From the IMG/VR virus record IMGVR_UViG_3300047095_000535, positions 19,708 through 83,707 of that record: a stretch of DNA of 64,000 nucleotides, one strand, 5' to 3'. Position 1 is the stretch's first letter. Each line of letters opens with the position of its first letter. This stretch comes from a virus. Made by a program: the position numbers and the translations under genes. Below are positions 20,691-55,263 of the stretch, piece after piece. Under the pieces are notes generated by a model. That model was not told the origin of the DNA, did no database searches, and worked only from the letters and a program-made list of their open reading frames with translations.

Positions 20691-20708
20691 TAAACACTAG
20701 GATAATTT
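20691..20708 (+). promoter_or_regulatory. First of ~30 copies of phage promoter TAAACACTA-N3-TANNNT
   Basis: Copies start at 20691, 23984, 25295, 26196, 27369, 28628, 29782, 31755, 35517, 38963, 40414, 40874, 42748, 43999, 44849, 47012, 48168, 49887, 52162, 52874, 53170, 55596, 56236, 57493, 59418, 60481, 61193 (variant), 61814, 62564 and 63274. All are + strand at gene junctions; those at 25295, 26196 and 44849 read AAAACACTA. Confidence 0.85.
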
Positions 20709-40897: not shown

Positions 40898-41302
40898 ATG
40901 AAACGACGATGTATCATTTTGAGAGGAACTGCGGGAGTGGGGAAGTCCACTTTCTGCGATCTTATCGCGGAACCAAAGGTTGTATGTTGCGCGGATTTTT
41001 TCTTTGAAAAAGATGGTGAATATAATTGGGACGGGGCGAAGTTGAGAGAAGCGCATGAACAGTCCGTCAACGCTTTTAAACAGGCGTTACTAGACCCTCA
41101 TGTGGATAATATCATTGTTGCTAATACCAATTGTAAGGAGCGTGACCTTTCAGTGTATATTGAAGAAGCCGAAAAGTTGAACATACCAGTTACGGTAGTG
41201 GTGTTGGAGAAAAGACATGACGGTGATAATCTTCATGGGGTACCTGATGAAGTGATTGCCCGACAAGAACAAAATCTAAGAAACAGTTTAAAGCTAAAAT
41301 AA
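40898..41302 (+). CDS. P-loop kinase (polynucleotide-kinase/AAA_33-like)
   Basis: 'ILRGTAGVGKST', 'CADFFF', 'IVANTN', 'NLHGVP'. Confidence 0.85.
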   Translation: MKRRCIILRGTAGVGKSTFCDLIAEPKVVCCADFFFEKDGEYNWDGAKLREAHEQSVNAFKQALLDPHVDNIIVANTNCKERDLSVYIEEAEKLNIPVTVVVLEKRHDGDNLHGVPDEVIARQEQNLRNSLKLK

Positions 41303-42888: not shown

Positions 42889-44001
42889 ATGAAAATATCT
42901 GAACAAATACTCCATTTTTTAAAAGCTCCTTCTGACGAGTTTAAGCTTAAGTATGGTCAGGTGTTTGGTAGAGACTGTGTGTTGATTACGCCTTCCGATA
43001 TGGGAACACATTGGAACGCGGAAAACTCAATTTTTCGTAGTTGTTTATGTGATTGTAACAGCGGGCAGATTTATAATATCGGGTTTCGAAAGTTTGTAAA
43101 CTTCTCCGAACGTCCGGAATATGAACCTTGGGATAACGAGTGGAAGGTAGAGGCTCGCCACAAAATAGATGGTTCACTGCTATGTATTTCAAAAATAGAT
43201 AAAAATGTATTGGCTAGAACCAGAGGGGTGTTTGATGCTACAGTTCATGAGACTGGAGACGAGATAGAAACGTTTAAAAATAAGTATCCCTTGGTTTTTG
43301 ATAATGAATATATAAACTCAGAAAGATACACGATATTATGCGAACATACTACACCAAATCGTGTCATAGTTATTAGAGAGCATTCAATACCTACTCTAAC
43401 CCTATTGGGTATTATATCCCACGACACTTGTAAATATGTGTCACAAGACGAGTTGGACGAGTGCGCTATTCGATGGGGAGTGAACCGTCCTGAAAAATAT
43501 GAATATGCTTCCGTTTCGGAATGTCTCGCGGATGTGGCGGCTTGGAAAGGTAAGGAAGGGGTGGTACTATGTTCTCCTGATGGACAAACCCTGAAGAAAA
43601 TCAAGGCGGATTTGTATCTGGAACTCCACAAGGTTTCTACGGGGTACACCAACATCAATCAGGTTTTGGACCTGTTCATGACCACTCCTCGATTTCCTGA
43701 TTGGAAGGACTTCTACACATATGTCGAAACCACTTTGGATTACGAGGTTGCGGAGAAGCTGTGTGGTCATATTGGCAAGATCAGCGACTCTTATAAACTG
43801 GTTCTGGAGCATATCGACAAGATTCACAAGGCGGTGGACATGGTTCGTGGACCTTCGTTCACCCGTAAGGATCAAGCTTTGTTTATTACAGGGCGTTGGG
43901 ACGATTGGAGAAAGGTAGCGGCGTTCCAGATACTTGACAACCGGGAATTGGATGATAAGGTTATCCGGAAGGGAATTGAGACTTACCTACTTTACGATTA
44001 A
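42889..44001 (+). CDS. RNA ligase 1 (T4 RnlA-like)
   Basis: 'GFRKFVNFSE', motif I 'HKIDGSL', 'CEHTTPNRVIV', 'KEGVV', 'KKIK'. Confidence 0.85.
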   Translation: MKISEQILHFLKAPSDEFKLKYGQVFGRDCVLITPSDMGTHWNAENSIFRSCLCDCNSGQIYNIGFRKFVNFSERPEYEPWDNEWKVEARHKIDGSLLCISKIDKNVLARTRGVFDATVHETGDEIETFKNKYPLVFDNEYINSERYTILCEHTTPNRVIVIREHSIPTLTLLGIISHDTCKYVSQDELDECAIRWGVNRPEKYEYASVSECLADVAAWKGKEGVVLCSPDGQTLKKIKADLYLELHKVSTGYTNINQVLDLFMTTPRFPDWKDFYTYVETTLDYEVAEKLCGHIGKISDSYKLVLEHIDKIHKAVDMVRGPSFTRKDQALFITGRWDDWRKVAAFQILDNRELDDKVIRKGIETYLLYD

Positions 44002-44022: not shown

Positions 44023-44850
44023 ATGAAAGCATATAAAGCAACTTACAACATGAAGTGTGAGACCCTTACCTATGAGGTAGGGAAGACGTATTCAATAACC
44101 AGTATGGAAATGTGTGACCACGGGTTTCACTTCTGTCCTGTCATGAGCGACGTTCTTGAGTTTTATCCTTATCATAAGGACTTCATTCTAATGGAAGTGG
44201 AGATTCTTGGGAAGAGGGTGATTAAAAGGGAGAAAGGTCTTACTGATAAGATGAGGGTGGTTCGCATCGTTCCCCCGGAAGAGTATGAGTTTGATATTCC
44301 CGAGCAGGAGAAGGCTGACGAAGTTACATGTGTATATGACGAACGAGGAAATGTGATATCCAAGACTTATCACAATAACATCGTGTATACTTATGAGTAT
44401 GATGATCGGAATAACGTTATCGTGGAAGGGTTACCGAACGGGCGTAAAAAGTTTAACACATACGACGAGAGAAATAATCTGATTCGTCGGGAGGATGGTA
44501 GAGGGTATAGAGCGTATACATATGGATACGACGAGAGGAATAATAAGATTTTCATGAAGTATCCATCAGGTGAGCAGTGGGCTTATGGGTATGACGAACG
44601 TAATAACAATACTTACTGTATATCTCCAGAGGGTCTCACGACGAGGTATGAATATGATGAGCGGGGTAATATAACCCGTAGGATTGATCATGATGGTCGT
44701 TGTGCGTGTTTGACATATGATGAACATAACCGCAGGGCTTCCATTAGGTACTCGGATGGGGATATCACCACATGGAATTATGACGAGCAAGGAAACCTTA
44801 TCGAATACTCTACCACTGATGGGTCTACTTGGAGGATAACAATCGAGTAA
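44023..44850 (+). CDS. YD/RHS-repeat protein (paralog 2 of 25319-26197)
   Basis: Same N-terminal domain, about 8 'YxYDERxN' repeats, same C-terminus 'WxITIE'. Confidence 0.8.
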   Translation: MKAYKATYNMKCETLTYEVGKTYSITSMEMCDHGFHFCPVMSDVLEFYPYHKDFILMEVEILGKRVIKREKGLTDKMRVVRIVPPEEYEFDIPEQEKADEVTCVYDERGNVISKTYHNNIVYTYEYDDRNNVIVEGLPNGRKKFNTYDERNNLIRREDGRGYRAYTYGYDERNNKIFMKYPSGEQWAYGYDERNNNTYCISPEGLTTRYEYDERGNITRRIDHDGRCACLTYDEHNRRASIRYSDGDITTWNYDEQGNLIEYSTTDGSTWRITIE

Positions 44851-45371: not shown

Positions 45372-46244
45372 ATGGACATTCTCAACTTAGATGCGAATTT
45401 TAAACCTTTCTCCGACTTGGACCTATTGGTAGGGTTTGTGTTGGAACATAAAACGTTCAACTTCTTAGGGGGAGAACCACACATCCAGATCCTATCGGAT
45501 AGAATAAGTTCGGAGTTGGTTATCACTCAAAGGTTCAATAACATTGCCGACCTGTTCAACATCGTTCTAGCCAATGATGCGGCTAAACGGAAGGGGTACG
45601 AGACGATTCACTTATATCTTCCATACTTCCCTGCTGCTCGTCAGGATCGTGTATGTAATCCCGGGGAACCTCTCACGGTTAAGGTTTTCACGGATATTAT
45701 AAACTCCTGCGGGTTCAAATCCGTGAAGATTTTCCGCCCACATAGTGAGGTTGTGGTGGCGTTGTTGGATAGGGTGATTGTGGTTGATCTTGAGAAGTAC
45801 CATGTCCAGAAAATCGTGCAACAAAATTCAGATGGTCGCTATTTCAACATCGTTTGTCCTGATGCGGGTGCTGGAAAATCTACAGAGAAGATCGTTCGGT
45901 TCTTAATAGAACAAGACAAACATAGGACGTATAACCTGATTCGTTGTGAGAAGATTCGTGACGTTACGGATGGTAAACTTCTAGGGTTCACTGTTCATGA
46001 AACAGATGATCTTAGAGGATATCCAACATTGATCGTGGATGATATCTGCGCCATGGGCGGAACGTTTATCGGACTCGCTAAGAAGCTGCGTACGATAAAC
46101 TGTGGAAAGCTTATGCTTTATACCAGTCACGCGGATTGTATGGCGGGTCTTAACAACGTCGCTTCGGTGTTTGATAAGGTTTATATCACTAACAGCAAAC
46201 AGGACTGGCCTTCGGATTCGGTTATCAACGTTATAAATCTATGA
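45372..46244 (+). CDS. Ribose-phosphate pyrophosphokinase-like (possible ADPR-PP synthetase)
   Basis: 'FLGGEPHIQ', 'PYFPAARQDRV', 'PDAGA', PRT motif 'IVDDICAMGGTF'. Confidence 0.85.
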   Translation: MDILNLDANFKPFSDLDLLVGFVLEHKTFNFLGGEPHIQILSDRISSELVITQRFNNIADLFNIVLANDAAKRKGYETIHLYLPYFPAARQDRVCNPGEPLTVKVFTDIINSCGFKSVKIFRPHSEVVVALLDRVIVVDLEKYHVQKIVQQNSDGRYFNIVCPDAGAGKSTEKIVRFLIEQDKHRTYNLIRCEKIRDVTDGKLLGFTVHETDDLRGYPTLIVDDICAMGGTFIGLAKKLRTINCGKLMLYTSHADCMAGLNNVASVFDKVYITNSKQDWPSDSVINVINL

Positions 46245-46795
46245 TACTATATAAAAATCAACTATTAGGCGCGACGATGAACGTCACGCAGTGTCGGATC
46301 TATTTTTTGGGAGGCGTCTTCTCACAATGGACAAAGTGTAATATTTATGACGCGAATCTGGATATCACATTCAATTGTGCGGAACAGGCGATGATGTATG
46401 CCAAGGCACTCACGTTTTTCGATCAAGATGCGGCTCAACAAGTATTAGATACTTTAGATCCAAGGGAGCATAAGGCCATTGGGAGGTCCATTAAAAACTA
46501 CGATGATGCCAGATGGTCGGAAGTACGGTTTGATATCGTTAAGAATATCAACTATATGAAGTTCAACCAAAATCCTACGTGGAGGGAGCTGTTGATCATG
46601 ACATATCCATACGAATTGATTGAGGCGAATCCTAGTGATACGATATGGGGAGTTGGACTTCATGAAGACGACCCTCTTATTTTATCAAAGGATAACTGGA
46701 AGGGAACTAACTTATTGGGGCAAGCTATTATGGCTGCCAGAGATATGATTCTGAAAAACTATACTGTAAGCTTGAAGAACACTTATGAACGCTGA
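46241..46795 (+). CDS. NADAR (YbiA-like) protein
   Basis: 'FSQW..AEQAMMYAKA..KAIGR..KFNQN..LIEANPSDTIWGVG..GTNLLG'. Confidence 0.9.
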   Translation: MILYKNQLLGATMNVTQCRIYFLGGVFSQWTKCNIYDANLDITFNCAEQAMMYAKALTFFDQDAAQQVLDTLDPREHKAIGRSIKNYDDARWSEVRFDIVKNINYMKFNQNPTWRELLIMTYPYELIEANPSDTIWGVGLHEDDPLILSKDNWKGTNLLGQAIMAARDMILKNYTVSLKNTYER

Positions 46796-47009
46796 ACATG
46801 CGAGGGCGATGTCTGATGACGCGAATCGAGCGAAGTATTCTAAAGACTTGAACAACATCGCTACCGCTATAATGGAACGTGCTAAAGACGGGTGTTATAG
46901 CGTTACGGTTCCTCCTACTGATGGGTATTCGTTCTTCGTCCAAGGGTATCTTCGTGCGATGGGGTATAAGGTTACGATGTATCAAGGAAGGTACGAGATA
47001 GATTGGTGA
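46785..47009 (+). CDS. Hypothetical protein
   Basis: 74-aa ORF ending 'GYKV..IDW'. Confidence 0.55.
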   Translation: MNAEHARAMSDDANRAKYSKDLNNIATAIMERAKDGCYSVTVPPTDGYSFFVQGYLRAMGYKVTMYQGRYEIDW

Positions 47010-47034
47010 GTTAAACACTAGAATGACATAAGAT

Positions 47035-47310
47035 ATGGATATGAAATTAGAAGACATGAACTCCACCCAGCTTCGGGAGTATGCTAATGAACTGGACCGA
47101 CAGGAAAGGATTAAAGATATTCCAACTCCGAAAGACGACATAGACTTCGAGGAGGTAAAAAACGTGGCAAGGGAACATTTAGAATCTTTGGCATGTGGCC
47201 ATGTCTCCGAGTTAGAATGTTTCCATGAAGAACTTTATGATGAAGTCATGGAGGCGATTTATGGCGGCGATATTTTCAAGTGGATCATTGGACACACTGA
47301 ACGATCATGA
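47035..47310 (+). CDS. Hypothetical protein
   Basis: ATG 23 nt after promoter motif. Confidence 0.6.
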   Translation: MDMKLEDMNSTQLREYANELDRQERIKDIPTPKDDIDFEEVKNVAREHLESLACGHVSELECFHEELYDEVMEAIYGGDIFKWIIGHTERS

Positions 47311-48170
47311 CCAGCATCGAATTATTCAAGACAGAACTCCGTGAGTTGTTGGCAGGAATGAGTGATGAGGAACTTCTCAAATCGTTGGAAGATATCAGAA
47401 TCAAAAACGAAAACGCTTCCCCTACTTTCAAGTTTTATCGGGTATGTAACACCGATATAGAGCAAGGGTTATGGTATGATTACACCGGAAAGTTCCTTGG
47501 GTTGATCCACGATGAATTTTCATTCTGTTCCAACTCTTCTCTTAAAATGGATTATGATGAAGATTTGGTAGGGTGGCTATCCGCTACTTCTTCAATAGAA
47601 GACCTTTATAAATGGTTTACGGTTGACGATATATTAAAACTGCAATCCTATGGGTGGTGTATACATGAGTACAAAGTCCGTAGTTTTTGGTTTTATGAAC
47701 CGTTCCAACATTTTGTCATTTGTCAGGAAACCAGTGTACCAGTAAGAAAGATTATGCTAATAAAAACAAAAGAAGACATCCCTTCCGATTGGAAGGTTCT
47801 AAACGTAAGAAAAACAACCACGGTTGAAATGCGCCCATGTCAGGGTGTTGAAAGGTTCAAGGTATCTTGGTCCGACTCCGAACTGGTCAGTGATCCCGAA
47901 ACGGACGTCATTGTTATTTCCAGTGATAACGAGTACCCGTGTAAGAAGGACATTTTCATAGAGACTTATACTCCGTTGAAATGGATTAAGAAAGCGGTCA
48001 ATCAGATCGTGGAAATACCGCAAGGGGTTACTCTGGAAGTTGCGACTCTGGAAGGTACTGTCAGTGACGTGACTTATCCAGATTATATCGCAATTGGAGC
48101 TAGGGGAGAGGTGTACGTGAACACCAAGAAGTTCTTTGACGAGAGTCTTGAGGTTGTGAACGATGAATAA
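47307..48170 (+). CDS. Multi-domain hypothetical protein (C-terminal PGDYG-like duplicated domain)
   Basis: 'EYPCKKDIFIETY' and 'TLEG..PDYIAIGARGEVY..FFDESLE'. Confidence 0.55.
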   Translation: MTSIELFKTELRELLAGMSDEELLKSLEDIRIKNENASPTFKFYRVCNTDIEQGLWYDYTGKFLGLIHDEFSFCSNSSLKMDYDEDLVGWLSATSSIEDLYKWFTVDDILKLQSYGWCIHEYKVRSFWFYEPFQHFVICQETSVPVRKIMLIKTKEDIPSDWKVLNVRKTTTVEMRPCQGVERFKVSWSDSELVSDPETDVIVISSDNEYPCKKDIFIETYTPLKWIKKAVNQIVEIPQGVTLEVATLEGTVSDVTYPDYIAIGARGEVYVNTKKFFDESLEVVNDE

Positions 48171-48191
48171 ACACTAGGCTATACTATAAAT

Positions 48192-49820
48192 ATGAAAATG
48201 TTACCATGTCTGAATGAGGACGCCTATAAAATTGACCATCGGAGACAGTATCCGAGTAATTCACAATTAGTCTTTAGTAATTTCACTGCCCGTGGCAGTA
48301 GGGTCGAAGGAGTGGATAAGGTTATTTTCTTCGGGTTACAATATTTTATTAAAAAGTACTTGATTGACGAGTGGAACGATAATTTTTTCAATGTCGATGT
48401 GGAAGAAGTAGTGGCGAAGTATAACCGGAGAGTCCGTAACTACCTTGGCCCTAACTTGATTGGTGATCAACACATTCGGGAGTTGCATTCATTAGGATAT
48501 CTACCATTGGAGATACGGGCGGTTCCCGAAGGATCTAATGTCAATTTACGGGTTCCGATGTTGGTGGTATGGAACACCGATCCTAGGTTTTTCTGGTTGA
48601 CCAACCTCATTGAGACCATTCTTTCAACAACTATTTGGATGCCTTGTACCAGTGCGACTACTGCTTTAATGTATCGGAAAGAGTTGAACGAATGGGCAAA
48701 TAAGACTAACCCGGAAATGATTGATTTTGTACCTTGGCAAGGTCACGACTTTGCTTTTAGGGGACACGGTTCATTCGAATCCGCTTGTAGTAGTGGGGCG
48801 GCACACCTATTAAGTTTTTCCGGTACGGATACCGTACCTGCCGTTGATTTTCTCGAAGAGTATTATAATGCGGATAGCGATAACGAGCTTGTTGGAGGTA
48901 GTGTAGCGGCATCAGAACACTCTGTGGCCTGTATGGGGTCTACATATGATAAAGATGGCAACGCGAGTGATTACGCATATTTTGAAAGAATGGTTACGGA
49001 GGTATACCCATCCGGTATTGTCAGTCTTGTTTCAGATACTTTCGATTTTTGGGGAGTCATAAATCCTGACGGGGGTACTCTTGTCAAACTAAAGGATATC
49101 ATCTTGGCCCGCGACGGCAAGGTGGTGATTCGTCCTGATTCCGGAGATCCGGTGAAGATTGTCACTGGATGGACTGATAAGGAATTATATTTCGAAGACG
49201 GTAAGGCATACGAGAATCTTAGTATTCCTGCGGAAGGACCGCATGGGAGACCTACGAAGATTGATAGTAAGGGCCGTGCGATTTCCGAGGTTGAACGCAA
49301 GGGATTGATTCAATGCCTATGGGAAATCTTCGGTGGTACTGTGTCTTCTACTGGATATAAACAGTTGGATAGCCACATTGGAGCGATCTATGGTGATAGT
49401 ATCACCCTCAAGCGTTGTAAGGATATCTGTGATCGATTGGCTGCGAAGGGATTCGCGTCCACCAATCTTGTGTATGGTATTGGAAGCTTTACCTATCAAG
49501 GGGCGGTTACACCCAACGCAATCGTTACACGGGACACTTACGGGTTCGCTGTGAAGTCAACCTATGGGGAAGTTCTAGAGGATGGAAACATCGTGGGTGT
49601 GGAAATCTTCAAAGATCCCATCACCGATGATGGACTCAAGAAATCCGCCAAGGGACTGATTGCGGTTTATGAAGATGAACACGGCGAGTTCTATATGAAG
49701 GATCAGGCCACATGGGAAGATGTCAAGAATTGTGCGTTCGTTCAAGTCTTTAAGGATGGAAGCCTAATTACCGACCACACTTTGGGTCAAATTAGGGAAC
49801 GAGTTAGTAAGAATTTTTAA
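48192..49820 (+). CDS. Nicotinamide phosphoribosyltransferase-like (NAMPT / Namat)
   Basis: 'DAYKIDHRRQYP', 'HDFAFRG', 'ASEHS', 'SLVSDTFD', 'IRPDSGDP', 'IYGDSIT', 'KKSAKG'. Confidence 0.92.
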   Translation: MKMLPCLNEDAYKIDHRRQYPSNSQLVFSNFTARGSRVEGVDKVIFFGLQYFIKKYLIDEWNDNFFNVDVEEVVAKYNRRVRNYLGPNLIGDQHIRELHSLGYLPLEIRAVPEGSNVNLRVPMLVVWNTDPRFFWLTNLIETILSTTIWMPCTSATTALMYRKELNEWANKTNPEMIDFVPWQGHDFAFRGHGSFESACSSGAAHLLSFSGTDTVPAVDFLEEYYNADSDNELVGGSVAASEHSVACMGSTYDKDGNASDYAYFERMVTEVYPSGIVSLVSDTFDFWGVINPDGGTLVKLKDIILARDGKVVIRPDSGDPVKIVTGWTDKELYFEDGKAYENLSIPAEGPHGRPTKIDSKGRAISEVERKGLIQCLWEIFGGTVSSTGYKQLDSHIGAIYGDSITLKRCKDICDRLAAKGFASTNLVYGIGSFTYQGAVTPNAIVTRDTYGFAVKSTYGEVLEDGNIVGVEIFKDPITDDGLKKSAKGLIAVYEDEHGEFYMKDQATWEDVKNCAFVQVFKDGSLITDHTLGQIRERVSKNF

Positions 49821-49910: not shown

Positions 49911-50153
49911 GTGGAGAAGATCCTATGTAATAACCCATGGGAAGGTCTGTGCTTTATGATGAACAAGGCACTTATTCGAGAAAAGCTGGACCTTCCGGTG
50001 ATGAAAAGCTTCAAGGACGATCCTAAGTTTTTTAAAAAATACGAAGTGCGGACATGTCCGGTGCTATTGGTGCTTGACAAAGGCAAGGTCGTTGATAGGA
50101 TTAAGGGGATTCAAGAAATTATAAACCATTTAAAAGAAGATGTACAAACTTAA
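49911..50153 (+). CDS. Thioredoxin-fold protein lacking canonical CxxC
   Basis: 'KYEVRTCPVLLVLDKGKVVDRIKG'; GTG 24 nt after promoter motif. Confidence 0.6.
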   Translation: MEKILCNNPWEGLCFMMNKALIREKLDLPVMKSFKDDPKFFKKYEVRTCPVLLVLDKGKVVDRIKGIQEIINHLKEDVQT

Positions 50154-50878
50154 TAATACCTCTCTCCTACTGGATACTTCTTTTTGCGGTTGTTGATGTT
50201 TTCAACTAATTTTAAATACTTATCATATTTTCTAACTAACCCTTTACTCTCTTTATCATAAAACAAGGAAAGAATGTTGCGTATGCTGTTTGTATTTTTT
50301 ACACCAAGGCAAGATGACCTATGGACGACTCCTGATGGTTTTTGTCTTTCATACTTCCATATTTTATACGAGGTATCATGCTTTTGTAGAAAAGTAGTGA
50401 GAGGGGACCAGTCTTGGTCTATACCTGACCAAAATTGTAAGGTTATTGATTTATTCGCCCCGTTTCCTATGTATAAACACCCATCCCCATCAAAGAAACC
50501 ATGCCAAAAGCAAGTCTCATACTGGTCTCCGATATGTTGTAATATTTTTCTAGGGCCGACTGTCTTATTTTTATAATCCATACTTATTAAAAAGTTCACC
50601 AAATGTTTATTTGAAGTGTTTAGTTGTGATTGTACGCTTCCGAACGGGAGTCCTTTCTTAACTCTTTGCCGTTCATAATAGTTCCAACTTCCTATAGATT
50701 CAAATGTAGGTAACAATGCCAACATATCTTCTTTTTTTAGTTCTACATTTATAGCGTTTTTATAAATTGTTCCATCTGCCCATAATAATCCTAATATATA
50801 TGAAAGTTCTTCGTTTATACTGGTTAAAAATTGAGTGTGGTCTACTCGATAAATTTTGGTTGGTTTGTCAGTCTTCAT
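50150..50878 (-). mobile_element. Free-standing LAGLIDADG homing endonuclease gene
   Basis: 'SYILGLLWADGTI' and 'FWHGFFDGDG'; antisense; AT-rich; TAAATA at 50884-50889. Confidence 0.85.
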
Positions 50879-52202: not shown

Positions 52203-52658
52203 ATGAATATCGCACAATCGCTTAAGGAAAAGAACCGAATCGCTGGCAGGATCAACAAGCTTCAGAAGAAGGTTGAGGATTACAACGTCAAGGAGATCAA
52301 TGAGGTTAAGGACTTTGATAGTCTGGAGCTTTTGAAGGAACTACAGACGGAATGGGCGTACCTCATTGATATCAAGTCCCGGTTGGCTAGAGCCAACATC
52401 GGCATTTGTGAGAAACTTGTGCGATTGGCGGAAGCTAAGAGCGAACTGTCTTTCTGGAGTTGTTTCCATAACGCGGGACAAGCGGCGGAAACCTATCTCC
52501 ATCGGTACAACGACGGAGAGAAGATCGTTTCCGAGCAACGGACGAAGGTTTCCTTAATTACTTCCAAGGAAGTTACGGATCACCAAGAGCGGGTTCAAAC
52601 CATGATCGACACACTCCAAGACGAGATCGACATTTACAACGGAACCACACAGATTTAA
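52203..52658 (+). CDS. DIP1984/DUF6847-like coiled-coil protein
   Basis: 'MNIAQSLKEKNRIAGRINKLQ..ELLKEL..LIDIKSRLARAN..IDTLQDEIDIYNGTTQI' follows the family pattern. Confidence 0.65.
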   Translation: MNIAQSLKEKNRIAGRINKLQKKVEDYNVKEINEVKDFDSLELLKELQTEWAYLIDIKSRLARANIGICEKLVRLAEAKSELSFWSCFHNAGQAAETYLHRYNDGEKIVSEQRTKVSLITSKEVTDHQERVQTMIDTLQDEIDIYNGTTQI

Positions 52659-52664
52659 CCCCCT

Positions 52665-52863
52665 TTTCAGACTGGTTGGACAAGAAGAAGGATATTACCT
52701 CATTCGGTCTAATGAACTACATAATAGATAACGATATTGACATTGAAACAGTGCGTCTTCGGACTATGCGCTACAAAATTCAAGATTCAAAACTTTGTGT
52801 TCAACCCTTAAAGATGAAAAAACAAAAATTAGCTTTCTTTCTAATTTGAAAACCAGTCTGAAA
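52665..52863 (+). ncRNA. Putative ~200-nt structured RNA
   Basis: Perfect 13-bp closing stem TTTCAGACTGGTT/AACCAGTCTGAAA; internal C(UUCG)G hairpin at 52755-52764; no ORF in the track. Confidence 0.6.
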
Positions 52864-52913
52864 CCCTCTTCATTAAACACTACAATATACTAAATATATA
52901 ACAACAAGCTTTC

Positions 52914-52972
52914 GTCACCAGCTACCAGATGGGATATTATCTGTAAACAATCCTCCTGTCTAATCCGGTGAC
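52914..52972 (+). ncRNA. Structured RNA repeat, copy 1
   Basis: GTCACC-AGCTACC-AGATGGGA-loop-TCCTGTCT-AATCC-GGTGAC. Confidence 0.7.
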
Positions 52973-52981
52973 AATTTATTT

Positions 52982-53044
52982 AGGTTCAGCTACCGATAGG
53001 GATATTATTTATTAGGAAACAACACTCCTTATCTATTCGAACCT
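52982..53044 (+). ncRNA. Structured RNA repeat, copy 2
   Basis: AGGTTC-AGCTACC-GATAGGGA-loop-TCCTTATC-TATTC-GAACCT. Confidence 0.7.
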
Positions 53045-53053
53045 TTTTTCTCA

Positions 53054-53086
53054 CCCGTTCATTTGGTGAAAATCTAAATGAGCGGG
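53054..53086 (+). other. 13-bp hairpin with T-loop-like 7-nt loop
   Basis: CCCGTTCATTTGG-TGAAAAT-CTAAATGAGCGGG. Confidence 0.6.
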
Positions 53087-53092
53087 CCTTAT

Positions 53093-53156
53093 CCACCAGC
53101 TACCAGAAGAGATATTTTAACCTCAAATTAAACAACACTCTCTTCTAATTCGGTGG
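53093..53156 (+). ncRNA. Structured RNA repeat, copy 3 (followed by T10)
   Basis: CCACC-AGCTACC-AGAAGAGA-loop-TCTCTTCT-AATTC-GGTGG. Confidence 0.7.
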
Positions 53157-53193
53157 TTTTTTTTTTCGTTAAACACTAAAGTATAAAACACAC

Positions 53194-55263
53194 ATGAACA
53201 TCGCAGCTAATAGATACTATATCGCGAATAAAGGGGCAACCAACAAGGTTTCATGGGCTATCGCCAATGCGATGGCTACGGAATTGGCTTGTTATAATAT
53301 CGGTGTAAGCCGTCCCCTGATGGAAGCTATCGCATCCAATACCAACAAGGACGCGATGGATTTCTGTAAGCAGATTCTCAAGGACTATACTGTAGGAAAA
53401 CTCAATCCGCCTTTGTTCAAGAATTGGGAGGATCGGGCCTATTTTTCCTTCGATGAAATGATTGTGCAGATTTTCGGATACATTCTTCAAATCTCTGGCA
53501 ACGATCTGGAAAGCGAAGGGTACATGGAAGATATCTTATCCAAGGCGCAATACACCAAGGCTAAGACTCTTCAATTGGTTACTCTGGACGAGGCGTTGGA
53601 CAAGTTCCAAAGTCTAGTCGATGTGAGGGTTTCCTTGGGTAAGAAGGCACAAAAGACCTTACAGGAAGCGGGAGAAGACTTCGCGGATGTTATCAGTATT
53701 TATAATAAGCGGATTTATAGCGACGAAGCTAGGATCGCCGTGCTTATGGGACTTCTTAATAGAGTCTCTCTTTACACCGCGTTGGGTATGCTGAAGTGCA
53801 AGCCCGCCGACGTACTTCGTTATGCGGCGGCATTACATGACTTCGGCGGTGTTAAGCTACCCTATGACGTTATCTATGGTAAGCTGTCATGGGCGGATCG
53901 GGTTGCCTTGTTGGGATATCTCAACGATTACTTTGAACATGACGAACTCATGGAAGCAATGGGTAACAATCGGGAAGCTTGGAACAGATTCTTCAAGCAT
54001 CTTCACGTCTTCCAACAAAAGGGATTTGTAAATAGATTCCCCTATGTCGGGGTTTCCGCAAGGGTTTCCAATGGACATAAGATGGATAGTTTTCCCTCTG
54101 CGTACGCTGGTATTCTAAAGACTTTGGCGGGGGAAGACCTGATCGAAGTTTTACCTACTGGTAACACGGTGTATAGAACCTTCGCGTCCCGTATCACTTC
54201 AGCTATCGAGGAAAAGAGTTTCGATAAGATCTATAAGCTTCTGAATAAGAACGCCGGATATCTTCTTCGCAATCTTGCTTCTGTTTCCAATGGAATCGGT
54301 AAGAAGGATGAGAAGGACTTCGTAGGGTTTGTCCGCACCAAGTTGAACACCGCGTCTCCTGATGTATTGTTCTCAATTCTTAGTCTTGATATGGACGCGG
54401 AATACCGTGTAATCGATGTGAAGGGTAATACTGTCATCCAACCCGCGAGTTATCCTAAAGTCATTGGAGATATCCAAGGGGATATCCGTAGGGTTATCCA
54501 TGAACGCTGGGGATATAAGGGCAAGGTGATCGTTGAGGATGGATTGGAAGATAACATCGTTCCGTTCTTGGCTAAGAACACCAACCTACAACGTGGAACG
54601 CGGATTCCTTTCGAAGATAAGGACAGTATTTACTTCTACATGCATTGGGTTCAATCTCAAAAATGTCGGACGGATCTGGATTCCAGTTATATCGCGTTCG
54701 ACAAAAACTGGAACTCCACTACGATCTACTTTGGTAATCAAGCCAACTCTTTCATAACTCATGGTGGAGATATCACCAGTGCTCCCGCACCTAATGGTGC
54801 TACGGAGTATGGAAGAATCCGGTTGGATCGTATTCCCAAAACAGTGAAGTATATTGTTCCGATTATCAACGTATACACCGGGGAATCATTCTCCGAGTTG
54901 AAGGAAGCGTATGCGGGATTCATGTTCTCCAATAGCAACAGTTTTAAAATCAAAGACTCCCATGTTCGGTATGACCTAACTAATCCTGCTAACTCCAATG
55001 TCCCCTTCATTGTGGATGTGGATAATCGGGAGATCATCGTAATGGATTATAATAGTCGGACGAGACTTGGGTTCACCGCCCATTCCGAGATCGACAATAT
55101 GAAGAAGCTGATTTCTGCGGTTCAAACCAAGAACTATATCACTATCCAAAAGCTGGCGGATATGCTGTCGGGAGATAGTGACGAGGTTTCATTGGAGATT
55201 CGCAAATCTGTCAGGAGAGACGATGAAATCGCTCCCGAATCACTGGCGACCTTGTTTAAATGA
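53194..55263 (+). CDS. Large helical (TROVE-like) protein with C-terminal TerD-like domain
   Basis: C-terminal 'YMHW..RTDLDSS..THGGDITSAPAPNGATEY..INVYTGESF' is TerD-like. N-terminal helical region has 'LNPPLFKNW', 'PADVLRYA', 'AGYLLRNL'. Confidence 0.7.
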   Translation: MNIAANRYYIANKGATNKVSWAIANAMATELACYNIGVSRPLMEAIASNTNKDAMDFCKQILKDYTVGKLNPPLFKNWEDRAYFSFDEMIVQIFGYILQISGNDLESEGYMEDILSKAQYTKAKTLQLVTLDEALDKFQSLVDVRVSLGKKAQKTLQEAGEDFADVISIYNKRIYSDEARIAVLMGLLNRVSLYTALGMLKCKPADVLRYAAALHDFGGVKLPYDVIYGKLSWADRVALLGYLNDYFEHDELMEAMGNNREAWNRFFKHLHVFQQKGFVNRFPYVGVSARVSNGHKMDSFPSAYAGILKTLAGEDLIEVLPTGNTVYRTFASRITSAIEEKSFDKIYKLLNKNAGYLLRNLASVSNGIGKKDEKDFVGFVRTKLNTASPDVLFSILSLDMDAEYRVIDVKGNTVIQPASYPKVIGDIQGDIRRVIHERWGYKGKVIVEDGLEDNIVPFLAKNTNLQRGTRIPFEDKDSIYFYMHWVQSQKCRTDLDSSYIAFDKNWNSTTIYFGNQANSFITHGGDITSAPAPNGATEYGRIRLDRIPKTVKYIVPIINVYTGESFSELKEAYAGFMFSNSNSFKIKDSHVRYDLTNPANSNVPFIVDVDNREIIVMDYNSRTRLGFTAHSEIDNMKKLISAVQTKNYITIQKLADMLSGDSDEVSLEIRKSVRRDDEIAPESLATLFK

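Follow-up and report, generated by a model that had tools for sequence, protein, structure and literature searches.

Our analysis of a 64,000-nucleotide (nt) stretch of lake-phage DNA (positions 19,708 to 83,707 of IMG/VR record IMGVR_UViG_3300047095_000535; this whole stretch is called the window below), part of an 83.7-kb viral record estimated to be 41% complete, identifies three related RNA units between open reading frame (ORF) 52203-52658 and ORF 53194-55263 as genes for structured small RNAs of approximately 60 nt that belong to an undescribed phage family. The second of these ORFs encodes a 689-amino acid (aa) protein with a TerD domain, and throughout the relatives the RNA family keeps its structure, its strand and its coupling to this protein, and in many of them it mimics transfer RNA (tRNA) at its tips. 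We infer that the protein binds the RNAs and that the tips act as decoys. On balance we consider it probable that a small-RNA family and a bound TerD-domain protein form a Y-RNA-like particle whose tRNA-like tips serve as decoy or tether against tRNA-directed defences.

Each of the three units folds into an outer helix (P1) of 5-6 base pairs (bp), an asymmetric internal loop, an inner helix (P2) of 8 bp and an apical loop, all on the + strand. Copy 1 (52912..52974; 74.1 bits with covariance model R1 and 57.9 bits with R2, the model rebuilt from the first matches; also folding and alignment A1) has P1 at 52914-19/52967-72, the junction AGCTACC at 52920-26, P2 at 52927-34/52954-61, its loop at 52935-53 and the junction AATCC at 52962-66. 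Copy 2 (52981..53045; 67.9 bits with R2; folding) has P1 at 52983-87/53039-43, AGCTACC at 52988-94, P2 at 52995-53002/53026-33, its loop at 53003-25 and TATTC at 53034-38, and copy 3 (53091..53158; 66.6 bits with R2; folding) has P1 at 53093-97/53152-56, AGCTACC at 53098-104, P2 at 53105-12/53139-46, its loop at 53113-38 and AATTC at 53147-51. The internal loops read AGCUACC on the 5' side and UAAUC, UAUUC or UAAUU on the 3' side. As the first-pass annotation of this DNA had described, the apical loops vary in sequence and length between a fixed TATT (52935-38, 53003-06, 53113-16) and AAACAA (52945-50, 53017-22, 53130-35); the whole loops measure 19, 23 and 26 nt, and their full ends are UAUU and AAACAA(C/U)(A/C)C. 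P1 and P2 covary already among these three copies, with G-U pairs that fit the + strand only.

The same architecture is found across the family, in which a handle made of P1 (5-6 bp), an internal loop of 5'-AGCUA(A/C)(N) facing 5'-(A/U)AUUC and P2 (7-8 bp) carries a rapidly changing apical element that begins with UAUU or UAUA and measures between 10 and 96 nt. In a 57-row alignment 12 of the 13 modelled pairs have changed on both sides, paired cells make up 93.0% of 727, compared with 34-46% when the partners are slid by 1-3 columns, and none of 500 shuffles reaches the observed covariation score; fitting this alignment to the covariance model biases it towards the structure, yet the difference is large. 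G-U pairs account for 43 of the 727 cells and are again compatible with the + strand only. The C-G pair that closes P1 is invariant (56/56 rows) and the innermost P2 pair is unpaired in 29/56, while the conserved single-stranded words are CAGCUA(A/C), (G/U)(A/U)UAU(U/A) at the start of the loop and (A/U)AUUCG.

Relatives of the module were reached mainly through the protein, for which 95 homologue clusters were found. An initial locus search with the single protein returned no relative, whereas alignment-based searches succeeded, and a 33-cluster alignment (A2) was used to fetch 4 viral, 80 metagenomic (kept from 370 relatives of the protein found) and 3 genome-contig loci. Model R2 detected 57 copies in 19 sources including the window (L236, the same contig as L226, was excluded from the count) and 8 more in 3 genome-contig loci, so that the 22 loci together contain 65 copies, each locus having between 1 and 6. 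Once the loci were oriented by the gene for the 689-aa-type protein, all 65 copies lay on the strand of that gene, and the last copy ended within 154 nt of its start codon in 20/22 loci and within 50 nt in 17/22; the exceptions are L241, with a copy downstream of the protein gene, and L247, where a tRNA-Lys gene intervenes. This protein is the sole constant partner of the arrays, the flanking genes being different (nucleotide metabolism, methylase, tRNA clusters). In L208, which was reached via its NAMPT gene, four RNA copies stand directly upstream of a 687-aa homologue of ORF 53194-55263, and although the gene order around the module differs from that of the window, RNA and protein stay joined. 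R2 gave no match in 60 loci (L248-L307) whose protein is a distant and partial relative, nor in 96 other loci (approximately 1 Mb) of related large phages picked via RNA ligase or NAMPT genes, the control loci altogether amounting to approximately 1.2 Mb. Close or near-full-length homologues with no RNA match are L242, which ends short of where its close relative L241 has its downstream copy, and L243, with only 144 nt of upstream sequence; the C-terminal fragments L240, L244 and L245 had no match either. Two scans of viral contigs with DNA patterns built from the fixed words of the window returned 119 and 4 stretches, all rejected as chance by the covariance model; these patterns were too narrow because relatives use AGCTAA and AAATAAC.

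One very close relative, L228, has an array 96% identical to that of the window and a partner protein 91% identical. Its copy 1 is the same, its copy 2 loop has a G-to-A change that renders AUUAGAA, and its copy 3 loop has been wholly replaced inside unchanged flanks, which marks the apical loop as a hot spot of change. tRNA genes were present in 6/20 loci scanned with ARAGORN. The helical-TerD gene lies within or beside phage tRNA clusters (1 to 6 tRNAs) in L225, L226, L232, L241, L242 and L247, and all of these except L242 also carry RNA copies.

The first-pass annotation had proposed that a fixed scaffold displays interchangeable mimics of tRNA anticodon loops, and this proposal is supported by homologues of the repeats but not by the three loops of the window itself. 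The family contains 63 distinct loops, of which the 58 of at most 30 nt were tested and the five longer ones (40-96 nt) were set aside. Searching for the bare pattern N-U-NNN-R-N, as had been suggested, is uninformative because nearly every shuffled loop contains it (50/50 real loops, on average 48.5/50 mono-shuffled ones), and it is the stem-closed form that separates real from randomized loops. In many loops a CU-NNN-AA heptaloop sits on a short helix of A-U pairs, usually UAUU with AAUA, and a closed 7-nt loop, defined as 7 nt with at least three closing pairs, can form in 33/58. Closed 7-nt loops with U at position 33 and a purine at position 37 occur in 21/58, compared with 4.2 under a mono-shuffle null, 8.6 under a position-specific null, in which every position is resampled separately and the bias of the 5' half to U and of the 3' half to A is thereby preserved, and 4.8 under an interior-only null. 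For CU-NNN-AA with at least three closing pairs the count is 11/58, with null values of 0.3, 0.8 and 0.2, respectively. None of the 2000 nulls reached the observed count in any of these cases, although the copies are a mixture of paralogues and orthologues and the shuffling nulls overstate their independence.

A second test, independent of the chosen pattern, compared the loops with the 81 distinct anticodon loops of 169 tRNA genes called by ARAGORN in all fetched loci. A stem-closed heptaloop identical to a natural phage tRNA anticodon loop is present in 11/58 short loops (0.28 under mono-shuffle and 0.89 under the position-specific null; 0/2000 for each). Two Lys loops are represented, CUUUUAA (Lys UUU), which occurs in three copies on three stems (UAUU/AAUA, AUUC/GAAU and AUUAA/UUAAU), and CUCUUAA (Lys CUU), together with CUGUUAA (Asn GUU), CUUGUAA (Thr UGU), CUGUAAA (Tyr GUA), UUGCUAA (Ser GCU), UUUUGGU (Gln UUG) and CUGCAAA (Cys GCA), the last in two copies with different stems. 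CUUUUAA, CUGUUAA, CUUGUAA and UUUUGGU are also the Lys, Asn, Thr and Gln loops of tRNA genes within the family's own loci. The stems that carry the mimics are the family's own A-U helices, unlike the G-C-rich anticodon stems of the matching tRNAs, and this difference, which is also difficult to reconcile with simple descent from tRNA, points to anticodon-loop tips that are under selection as loops, as far as sequence comparison can tell, rather than to recent copying of tRNA genes.

Larger tRNA-like tips were found in L227, where two copies (L227:1331-1458 and L227:910-1046) hold a T arm, a closed acceptor stem and a D arm inside the family handle. The loop runs in the order short stem, variable region (with an extra hairpin in one copy), T arm (of the type GGUUCAAAUCC or GGUUCGAGUCC), acceptor stem of 7 bp closed by a 6-nt loop, D arm and return strand, which is the permuted order of the tRNA-like domain of the bacterial Y RNA YrlA. 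The Rfam YrlA model (RF02553) matches L227:1365-1435 over model positions 23-88 with 41.2 bits (E 1.2e-7 in a 721-nt search), below the gathering score of 69 and with the Ro-binding stem outside the matched part; this is the best match of the family, in which no copy reaches the RF02553 threshold. The window has no RF02553 match at the gathering threshold, nor at E up to 10 in 52600-53250. YrlA-type domains are thus confined to 2/65 copies, both in L227, and are absent from the three window copies with their loops of 19-26 nt, while T-arm-like hairpins alone occur in L231:700-768 and L225:991-1071. Chen et al. (PMC4201824) warn that tandem tRNAs are false-positive YrlA matches. A tandem tRNA pair was ruled out for L227, in which the acceptor strands pair with each other and ARAGORN calls no tRNA. 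The 5'-strand motif of YrlA, which is believed to make the contact with Ro60, is GNCGAAN0-1G (PMC4201824), whereas the family has CAGCUA(A/C)(N)G as its conserved 5' strand, alike in layout only.

The partner protein (53194..55263, + strand) comprises a helical domain at approximately residues 130-450 and a TerD domain at approximately 463-640, the latter being the only Pfam match (residues 463-600, E 7.6e-7). AlphaFold gave a predicted local distance difference test (pLDDT) score of 84.8 for the full model and 81.4 for residues 1-460 folded alone. A fold search with the full model returned TerD structures for the C-terminal domain (Z 15.6 and 13.9), followed by Ro60 of the Thermus phage phiLo (Z 8.4; 252 residues aligned, model 133-439), Rsr of Deinococcus radiodurans (Z 7.3) and Xenopus Ro60 (Z 4.8). 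With the N-terminal model, phiLo Ro60 (Z 8.3, 261 aligned) and D. radiodurans Rsr (Z 7.2, 265 aligned) ranked first and second of 48,161 chains and Xenopus Ro60 ranked 19th, the remaining top-18 chains aligning over at most 148 residues. Foldseek searches with this N-terminal model gave template-modelling (TM) scores of 0.36-0.37 and E of 0.36-0.96 for phiLo TROVE entries alone (9kop: probability 0.98, TM 0.37, E 0.36). The ESM Atlas returned only unnamed or TerD-named viral clusters for residues 1-460 (scores 0.84-0.88), and Foldseek with the full protein returned TerD only, other rows (probability at most 0.25, most approximately 0.2; root-mean-square deviation mostly above 17 A) being discarded as noise. 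The models suggest a protein that may be Ro60-like in fold with TerD where Ro60 has its vWA domain, a likeness that is as yet unproven. A canonical TROVE gene was found neither in the record of the window nor in those of four relatives, all of which are incomplete.

Several observations weigh against the reading of the module as a Y-RNA-like particle with tRNA-like tips, besides the non-independence of the copies already mentioned. On the side of the protein, Z values of 7-8 fall in the range that the search tool flags for common helical arrangements; Pfam TROVE (PF05731) has no match to residues 1-460 at E up to 10, nor in a six-frame search of the genome; hhalign of the N-terminal alignment (A6) against a 27-member TROVE alignment (A7) gave a probability of 0.4% (E 0.17); and the C-terminus, where Ro60 has a vWA domain with a metal site, is TerD. 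The best family match is instead to a bacterial RING domain-containing family without assigned function, NCBIfam NF041916 (MXAN_6230/SCO0854 RING domain-containing; residues 122-629, E 2.4e-54, 185 bits against a cut-off of 600). The helical and TerD core aligns to positions 179-715 of the 842 in this profile, but the score is far under the equivalog cut-off and the first ~178 positions are unmatched; the 60 distant relatives of the protein in L248-L307, which may or may not belong to NF041916, are without RNA repeats. We found no paper on the MXAN_6230/SCO0854 family in a literature search whose coverage excluded most subscription journals. On the side of the RNAs, approximately two thirds of the short loops have no clean anticodon-like hairpin, and apical stems of A-U pairs only are marginal, RNAfold forming the helix in 4/7 mini copies tried. 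RNA contigs from four metatranscriptomes leave 52892-53107 without cover, so that expression is neither shown nor excluded, and a single low-depth contig spans 53114-53314 only.

The loops of the window belong to the same list. The first-pass annotation had read three heptamers in them, CTGTAAA (52941-52947), ATTAGGA (53011-53017) and CTCAAAT (53122-53128), as resembling the anticodon loops of a Tyr and two Leu tRNAs, with a warning that such short words can arise by chance. Their positions are correct and CUGUAAA is the tRNA-Tyr loop, but AUUAGGA and CUCAAAU are absent from the 81 natural loops, and at least one natural-loop identity is expected among three loops with P = 0.43-0.47. None of the three heptamers is closed by at least three base pairs. 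CUGUAAA of copy 1 is the stem-closed loop of L237:1418-1483 but has no closing helix in the window, ATTAGGA of copy 2 is closed by two pairs only, and the 5-bp stem of copy 3 surrounds CCUCAAA, one base off the proposed CUCAAAU and with C rather than U at position 33. No window loop therefore forms the closed 7-nt loop with U33 and a purine at 37 that strict mimicry demands, and whether the Tyr-like loop and the two Leu-like loops of the window still work as mimics is doubtful, if conceivable.

These window heptamers, which lie within chance, would be expected if the loops had no function and drifted in an A/U-rich background, the handle alone being important as a site of protein autoregulation or as a processing or termination signal. 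A loop length of 10 to 96 nt and an array that abuts the start codon of the protein gene are consistent with this explanation. It nevertheless appears quite unlikely to us, as the enrichment in the family survives three nulls, including the one that keeps position-specific composition, whole tRNA-like domains have been inserted in L227, and the array, with its own promoter-like box and T run, looks like a separate unit.

The comparison with bacterial Y RNAs provides both the model for the favoured account and its principal rival. As with YrlA and Ro60/Rsr, small RNAs, often in several copies, stand directly beside one protein gene, that of a ring-like RNA-binding protein in those systems and of a putative one here, and each RNA joins a stem handle to a tRNA-mimicking module. 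The differences are that the handle here is CAGCUA(A/C)(N)G opposite AAUUCG, that most members are approximately 60 nt with an anticodon-arm-like tip, the part that YrlA lacks, and that the partner is without a recognisable TROVE domain and has TerD in place of vWA. The RNA-protein pair would work like Y RNA and Ro60, yet by their own models it belongs to neither YrlA nor TROVE. Phage phiLo is described as having two Y-RNA-like genes (Yrl1/Yrl2) just upstream of its Ro60 gene (PMC12135203), which is the layout of the array and the 689-aa gene, and phiLo Ro60, with these two upstream RNAs, assembles with host PNPase (PMC12135203). An ordinary Y-RNA role, in which, as a quality control of damaged RNAs, the RNAs gate the ring-like protein or tether it to an enzyme of RNA decay or repair (PNPase, for example) and the tips, devoid of anticodon-specific meaning, are one of several tolerated caps or a trace of tRNA descent, would fit this precedent, the YrlA-type domains on the family handle in L227, the Ro60 structures at the top of the fold matches and the many loops that are not anticodon-like. 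We regard it as rather unlikely, since identity to natural loops in 11/58 and the recurrence of the same loop on different stems are hard to explain without selection on the loop.

In the decoy or tether account, the fixed handle of each RNA would be held by the 689-aa protein as Ro60 holds the stem of a Y RNA, and the apical element would be, in many relatives, a tRNA look-alike in the form of an anticodon-like hairpin, a T-arm-like hairpin or a full YrlA-type domain. The particle would present these tRNA parts to proteins that recognise tRNA, and the tip may engage anticodon nucleases of the host, or further defence enzymes directed at tRNA, as a decoy or tether, a role that is favoured because the tips copy the anticodon loops of particular tRNAs and change fast. 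A bolder version, to which we give only tentative credence, is a programmable particle for the display of tRNA parts, consisting of a Ro60-like TerD protein and an array of mini-RNAs whose tips (Lys, Asn, Thr, Tyr, Cys, Ser, Gln and Pro loops, or a tRNA elbow/acceptor half) are swapped like cassettes between close relatives and disarm the tRNA-cutting immune nucleases of the host. The further suggestion of the first-pass annotation that the RNAs might guide the ligases found no support, as 80 loci picked via an RNA-ligase homologue hold no copies and 16 relatives have no RNA-ligase domain closer than 1.5 kb to the module; an RNA ligase is encoded two genes downstream of the module in the window, but it is not a conserved neighbour.

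Two further explanations concern how the array is laid out and what its loops might pair with. In type III toxin-antitoxin systems (ToxI/ToxN), tandem structured RNA repeats stand upstream of a protein gene with a terminator between them. The array resembles these systems in its succession of promoter, tandem repeats, T run and protein gene, but it is most improbable that the repeats neutralise the downstream protein in this way: the repeats are longer (approximately 60 nt), mutually different and not exact tandem units, a promoter-like box of its own precedes the protein gene, and the gene product is unrelated to ToxN and AbiQ (TerD as the sole Pfam match, no endoribonuclease of the ToxN/AbiQ kind in PHROGs, 0 PADLOC families). 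To our knowledge, apical tRNA mimicry is not a feature of type III toxin-antitoxin systems. The variable loops might alternatively be antisense or kissing-loop regulators that pair with phage or host transcripts, and an 11-mer that occurs at two genomic sites, one of them approximately 20 nt ahead of the ATG at 40898, is complementary to the loop of copy 3. The matches of the loops to the phage genome are only 10-13 nt long, which by estimate, with no formal test, is near chance for 84 kb of A/T-rich sequence; there is no conserved target, and the loops of relatives equal anticodon loops and are not complementary to anything identified, so that we hold regulation of this kind to be very unlikely.

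The array appears to be delimited by its own signals. A promoter-like or gene-start box (TTCATTAAACACTACAATATAC..., 52869..52895, + strand) with a copy of the AAACACTA word heads the RNA array; this box, TTCATTAAACACTACAATATA, has a near copy ahead of the downstream protein gene, and direct repeat D4 ties it to the box at 53165-53185. The second promoter-like box spans 53165..53190 (+ strand; D4 repeat, AAACACTA word). Across the window the core word AAACACTA has 31 + strand occurrences and a single - strand one; most of the former lie approximately 25 nt upstream of an ATG, with one heading the RNA array. Examples of the motif (T/A)AAACACTAG(G)ATAnnAT on the + strand are at 20692, 25296, 44000, 52875, 53171 and 63275. 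The AAACACTA-core motif is probably a promoter or gene-start signal of the window phage and could help to map its transcription units. Ten consecutive T follow P1 of copy 3 without a gap (53157..53166, + strand), as read from the sequence, and probably mark the end of the array transcript; a simple terminator scan did not call it, the enclosed loop exceeding the rule of the scan. Between copies 2 and 3 lies a 13-bp hairpin with a 7-nt loop (53054..53086, + strand) that is outside the repeat family (minimum free energy -19.3 kcal/mol, z -5.07, matched by 0/200 shuffles) and is kept in L228 with a stem G-U changed to A-U; it could be a processing site, a pause site or a separate small RNA. ARAGORN found no tRNA in the window or the whole 83.7-kb record, Rfam found no family in the whole window at the gathering threshold and only chance-level microRNA and small nucleolar RNA rows in 52600-53250 at E up to 10, and blastn of the region and the surrounding 8 kb against 50,697 phage records returned nothing useful.

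Just upstream of the array promoter box lies an element of approximately 205 nt (52662-52866, + strand), with a perfect 10-bp closing stem (CAGACUGGUU with AACCAGUCUG) within a longer inverted repeat. It is present in RNA contigs of three lake metatranscriptomes at a depth of up to 75 in circularly permuted form (52794-52866, 64 other letters, 52726-52819; period approximately 205-207 nt), as would be seen for a circular RNA or for a tandem copy of the element in a relative. The element is common to L228 only (93% identity), has no Rfam match and has a fold z-score of -3.1. Inside it, GGATATTACCT and TCATTCGGTCTAAT at 52690-52713 (+ strand) resemble, as direct repeats D5 and D6, the loop start and 3' junction of the RNA units and may represent a decayed fourth copy, although the covariance model finds no match there. 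The window also encodes RNA ligases, nicotinamide adenine dinucleotide (NAD)-salvage genes, a RIIA-like gene and a LAGLIDADG endonuclease. The NAD-salvage block (45372-49820, + strand; ribose-phosphate pyrophosphokinase, NADAR and NAMPT) adjoins an RHS-repeat/DUF7666 gene (44023-44850) and an Rnl1-like RNA ligase gene (42889-44001), and the LAGLIDADG-type homing endonuclease gene (50150-50878) is on the - strand among otherwise + strand genes.

Lys and Tyr tRNAs have been reported as targets of tRNA-cutting defences, and both are among the anticodons displayed by this family. One study reports that the PARIS antiviral system is neutralized by a tRNA of viral origin (PMC11464382). The family resembles phage-encoded tRNAs that rescue infection from tRNA-cutting defences in that its tRNA-related RNAs are phage-borne and lie in or next to tRNA clusters; it differs in that its members, in whose arrays ARAGORN calls no tRNA, are not tRNAs and could neither be charged nor decode, so that any anti-defence action would be that of a decoy and not of a replacement. 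A jumbo-phage comparison mentions TROVE proteins with a tRNA-like partner and, separately, TerD genes (PMC7824862). Our literature search, with most subscription journals outside its coverage, found no description of the RNA family, of a TROVE-like TerD protein or of anticodon-loop decoys.

The RNAs constitute a new structured family that is a candidate for Rfam, and an RNA partner is now attached to a TerD-domain protein family for which our searches found no described function. The role of the tRNA-like half of bacterial Y RNAs is unsettled, at least in the portion of the literature consulted (PMC4201824), and here a related module appears reduced to a handle and a swappable tip, which in many phages is an exact anticodon loop. 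This provides the testable hypothesis that each tip addresses one tRNA-specific enzyme, in a compact system of a 60-nt RNA and one protein. If the decoy or tether account is true, substrate-mimicking RNAs would join repair ligases and replacement tRNAs as phage answers to tRNA-cutting defences, and if the more tentative display particle exists, it would represent an RNA-based counter-defence that works by mimicking substrates, and would supply a missing link from Y RNAs to immunity that targets tRNA.

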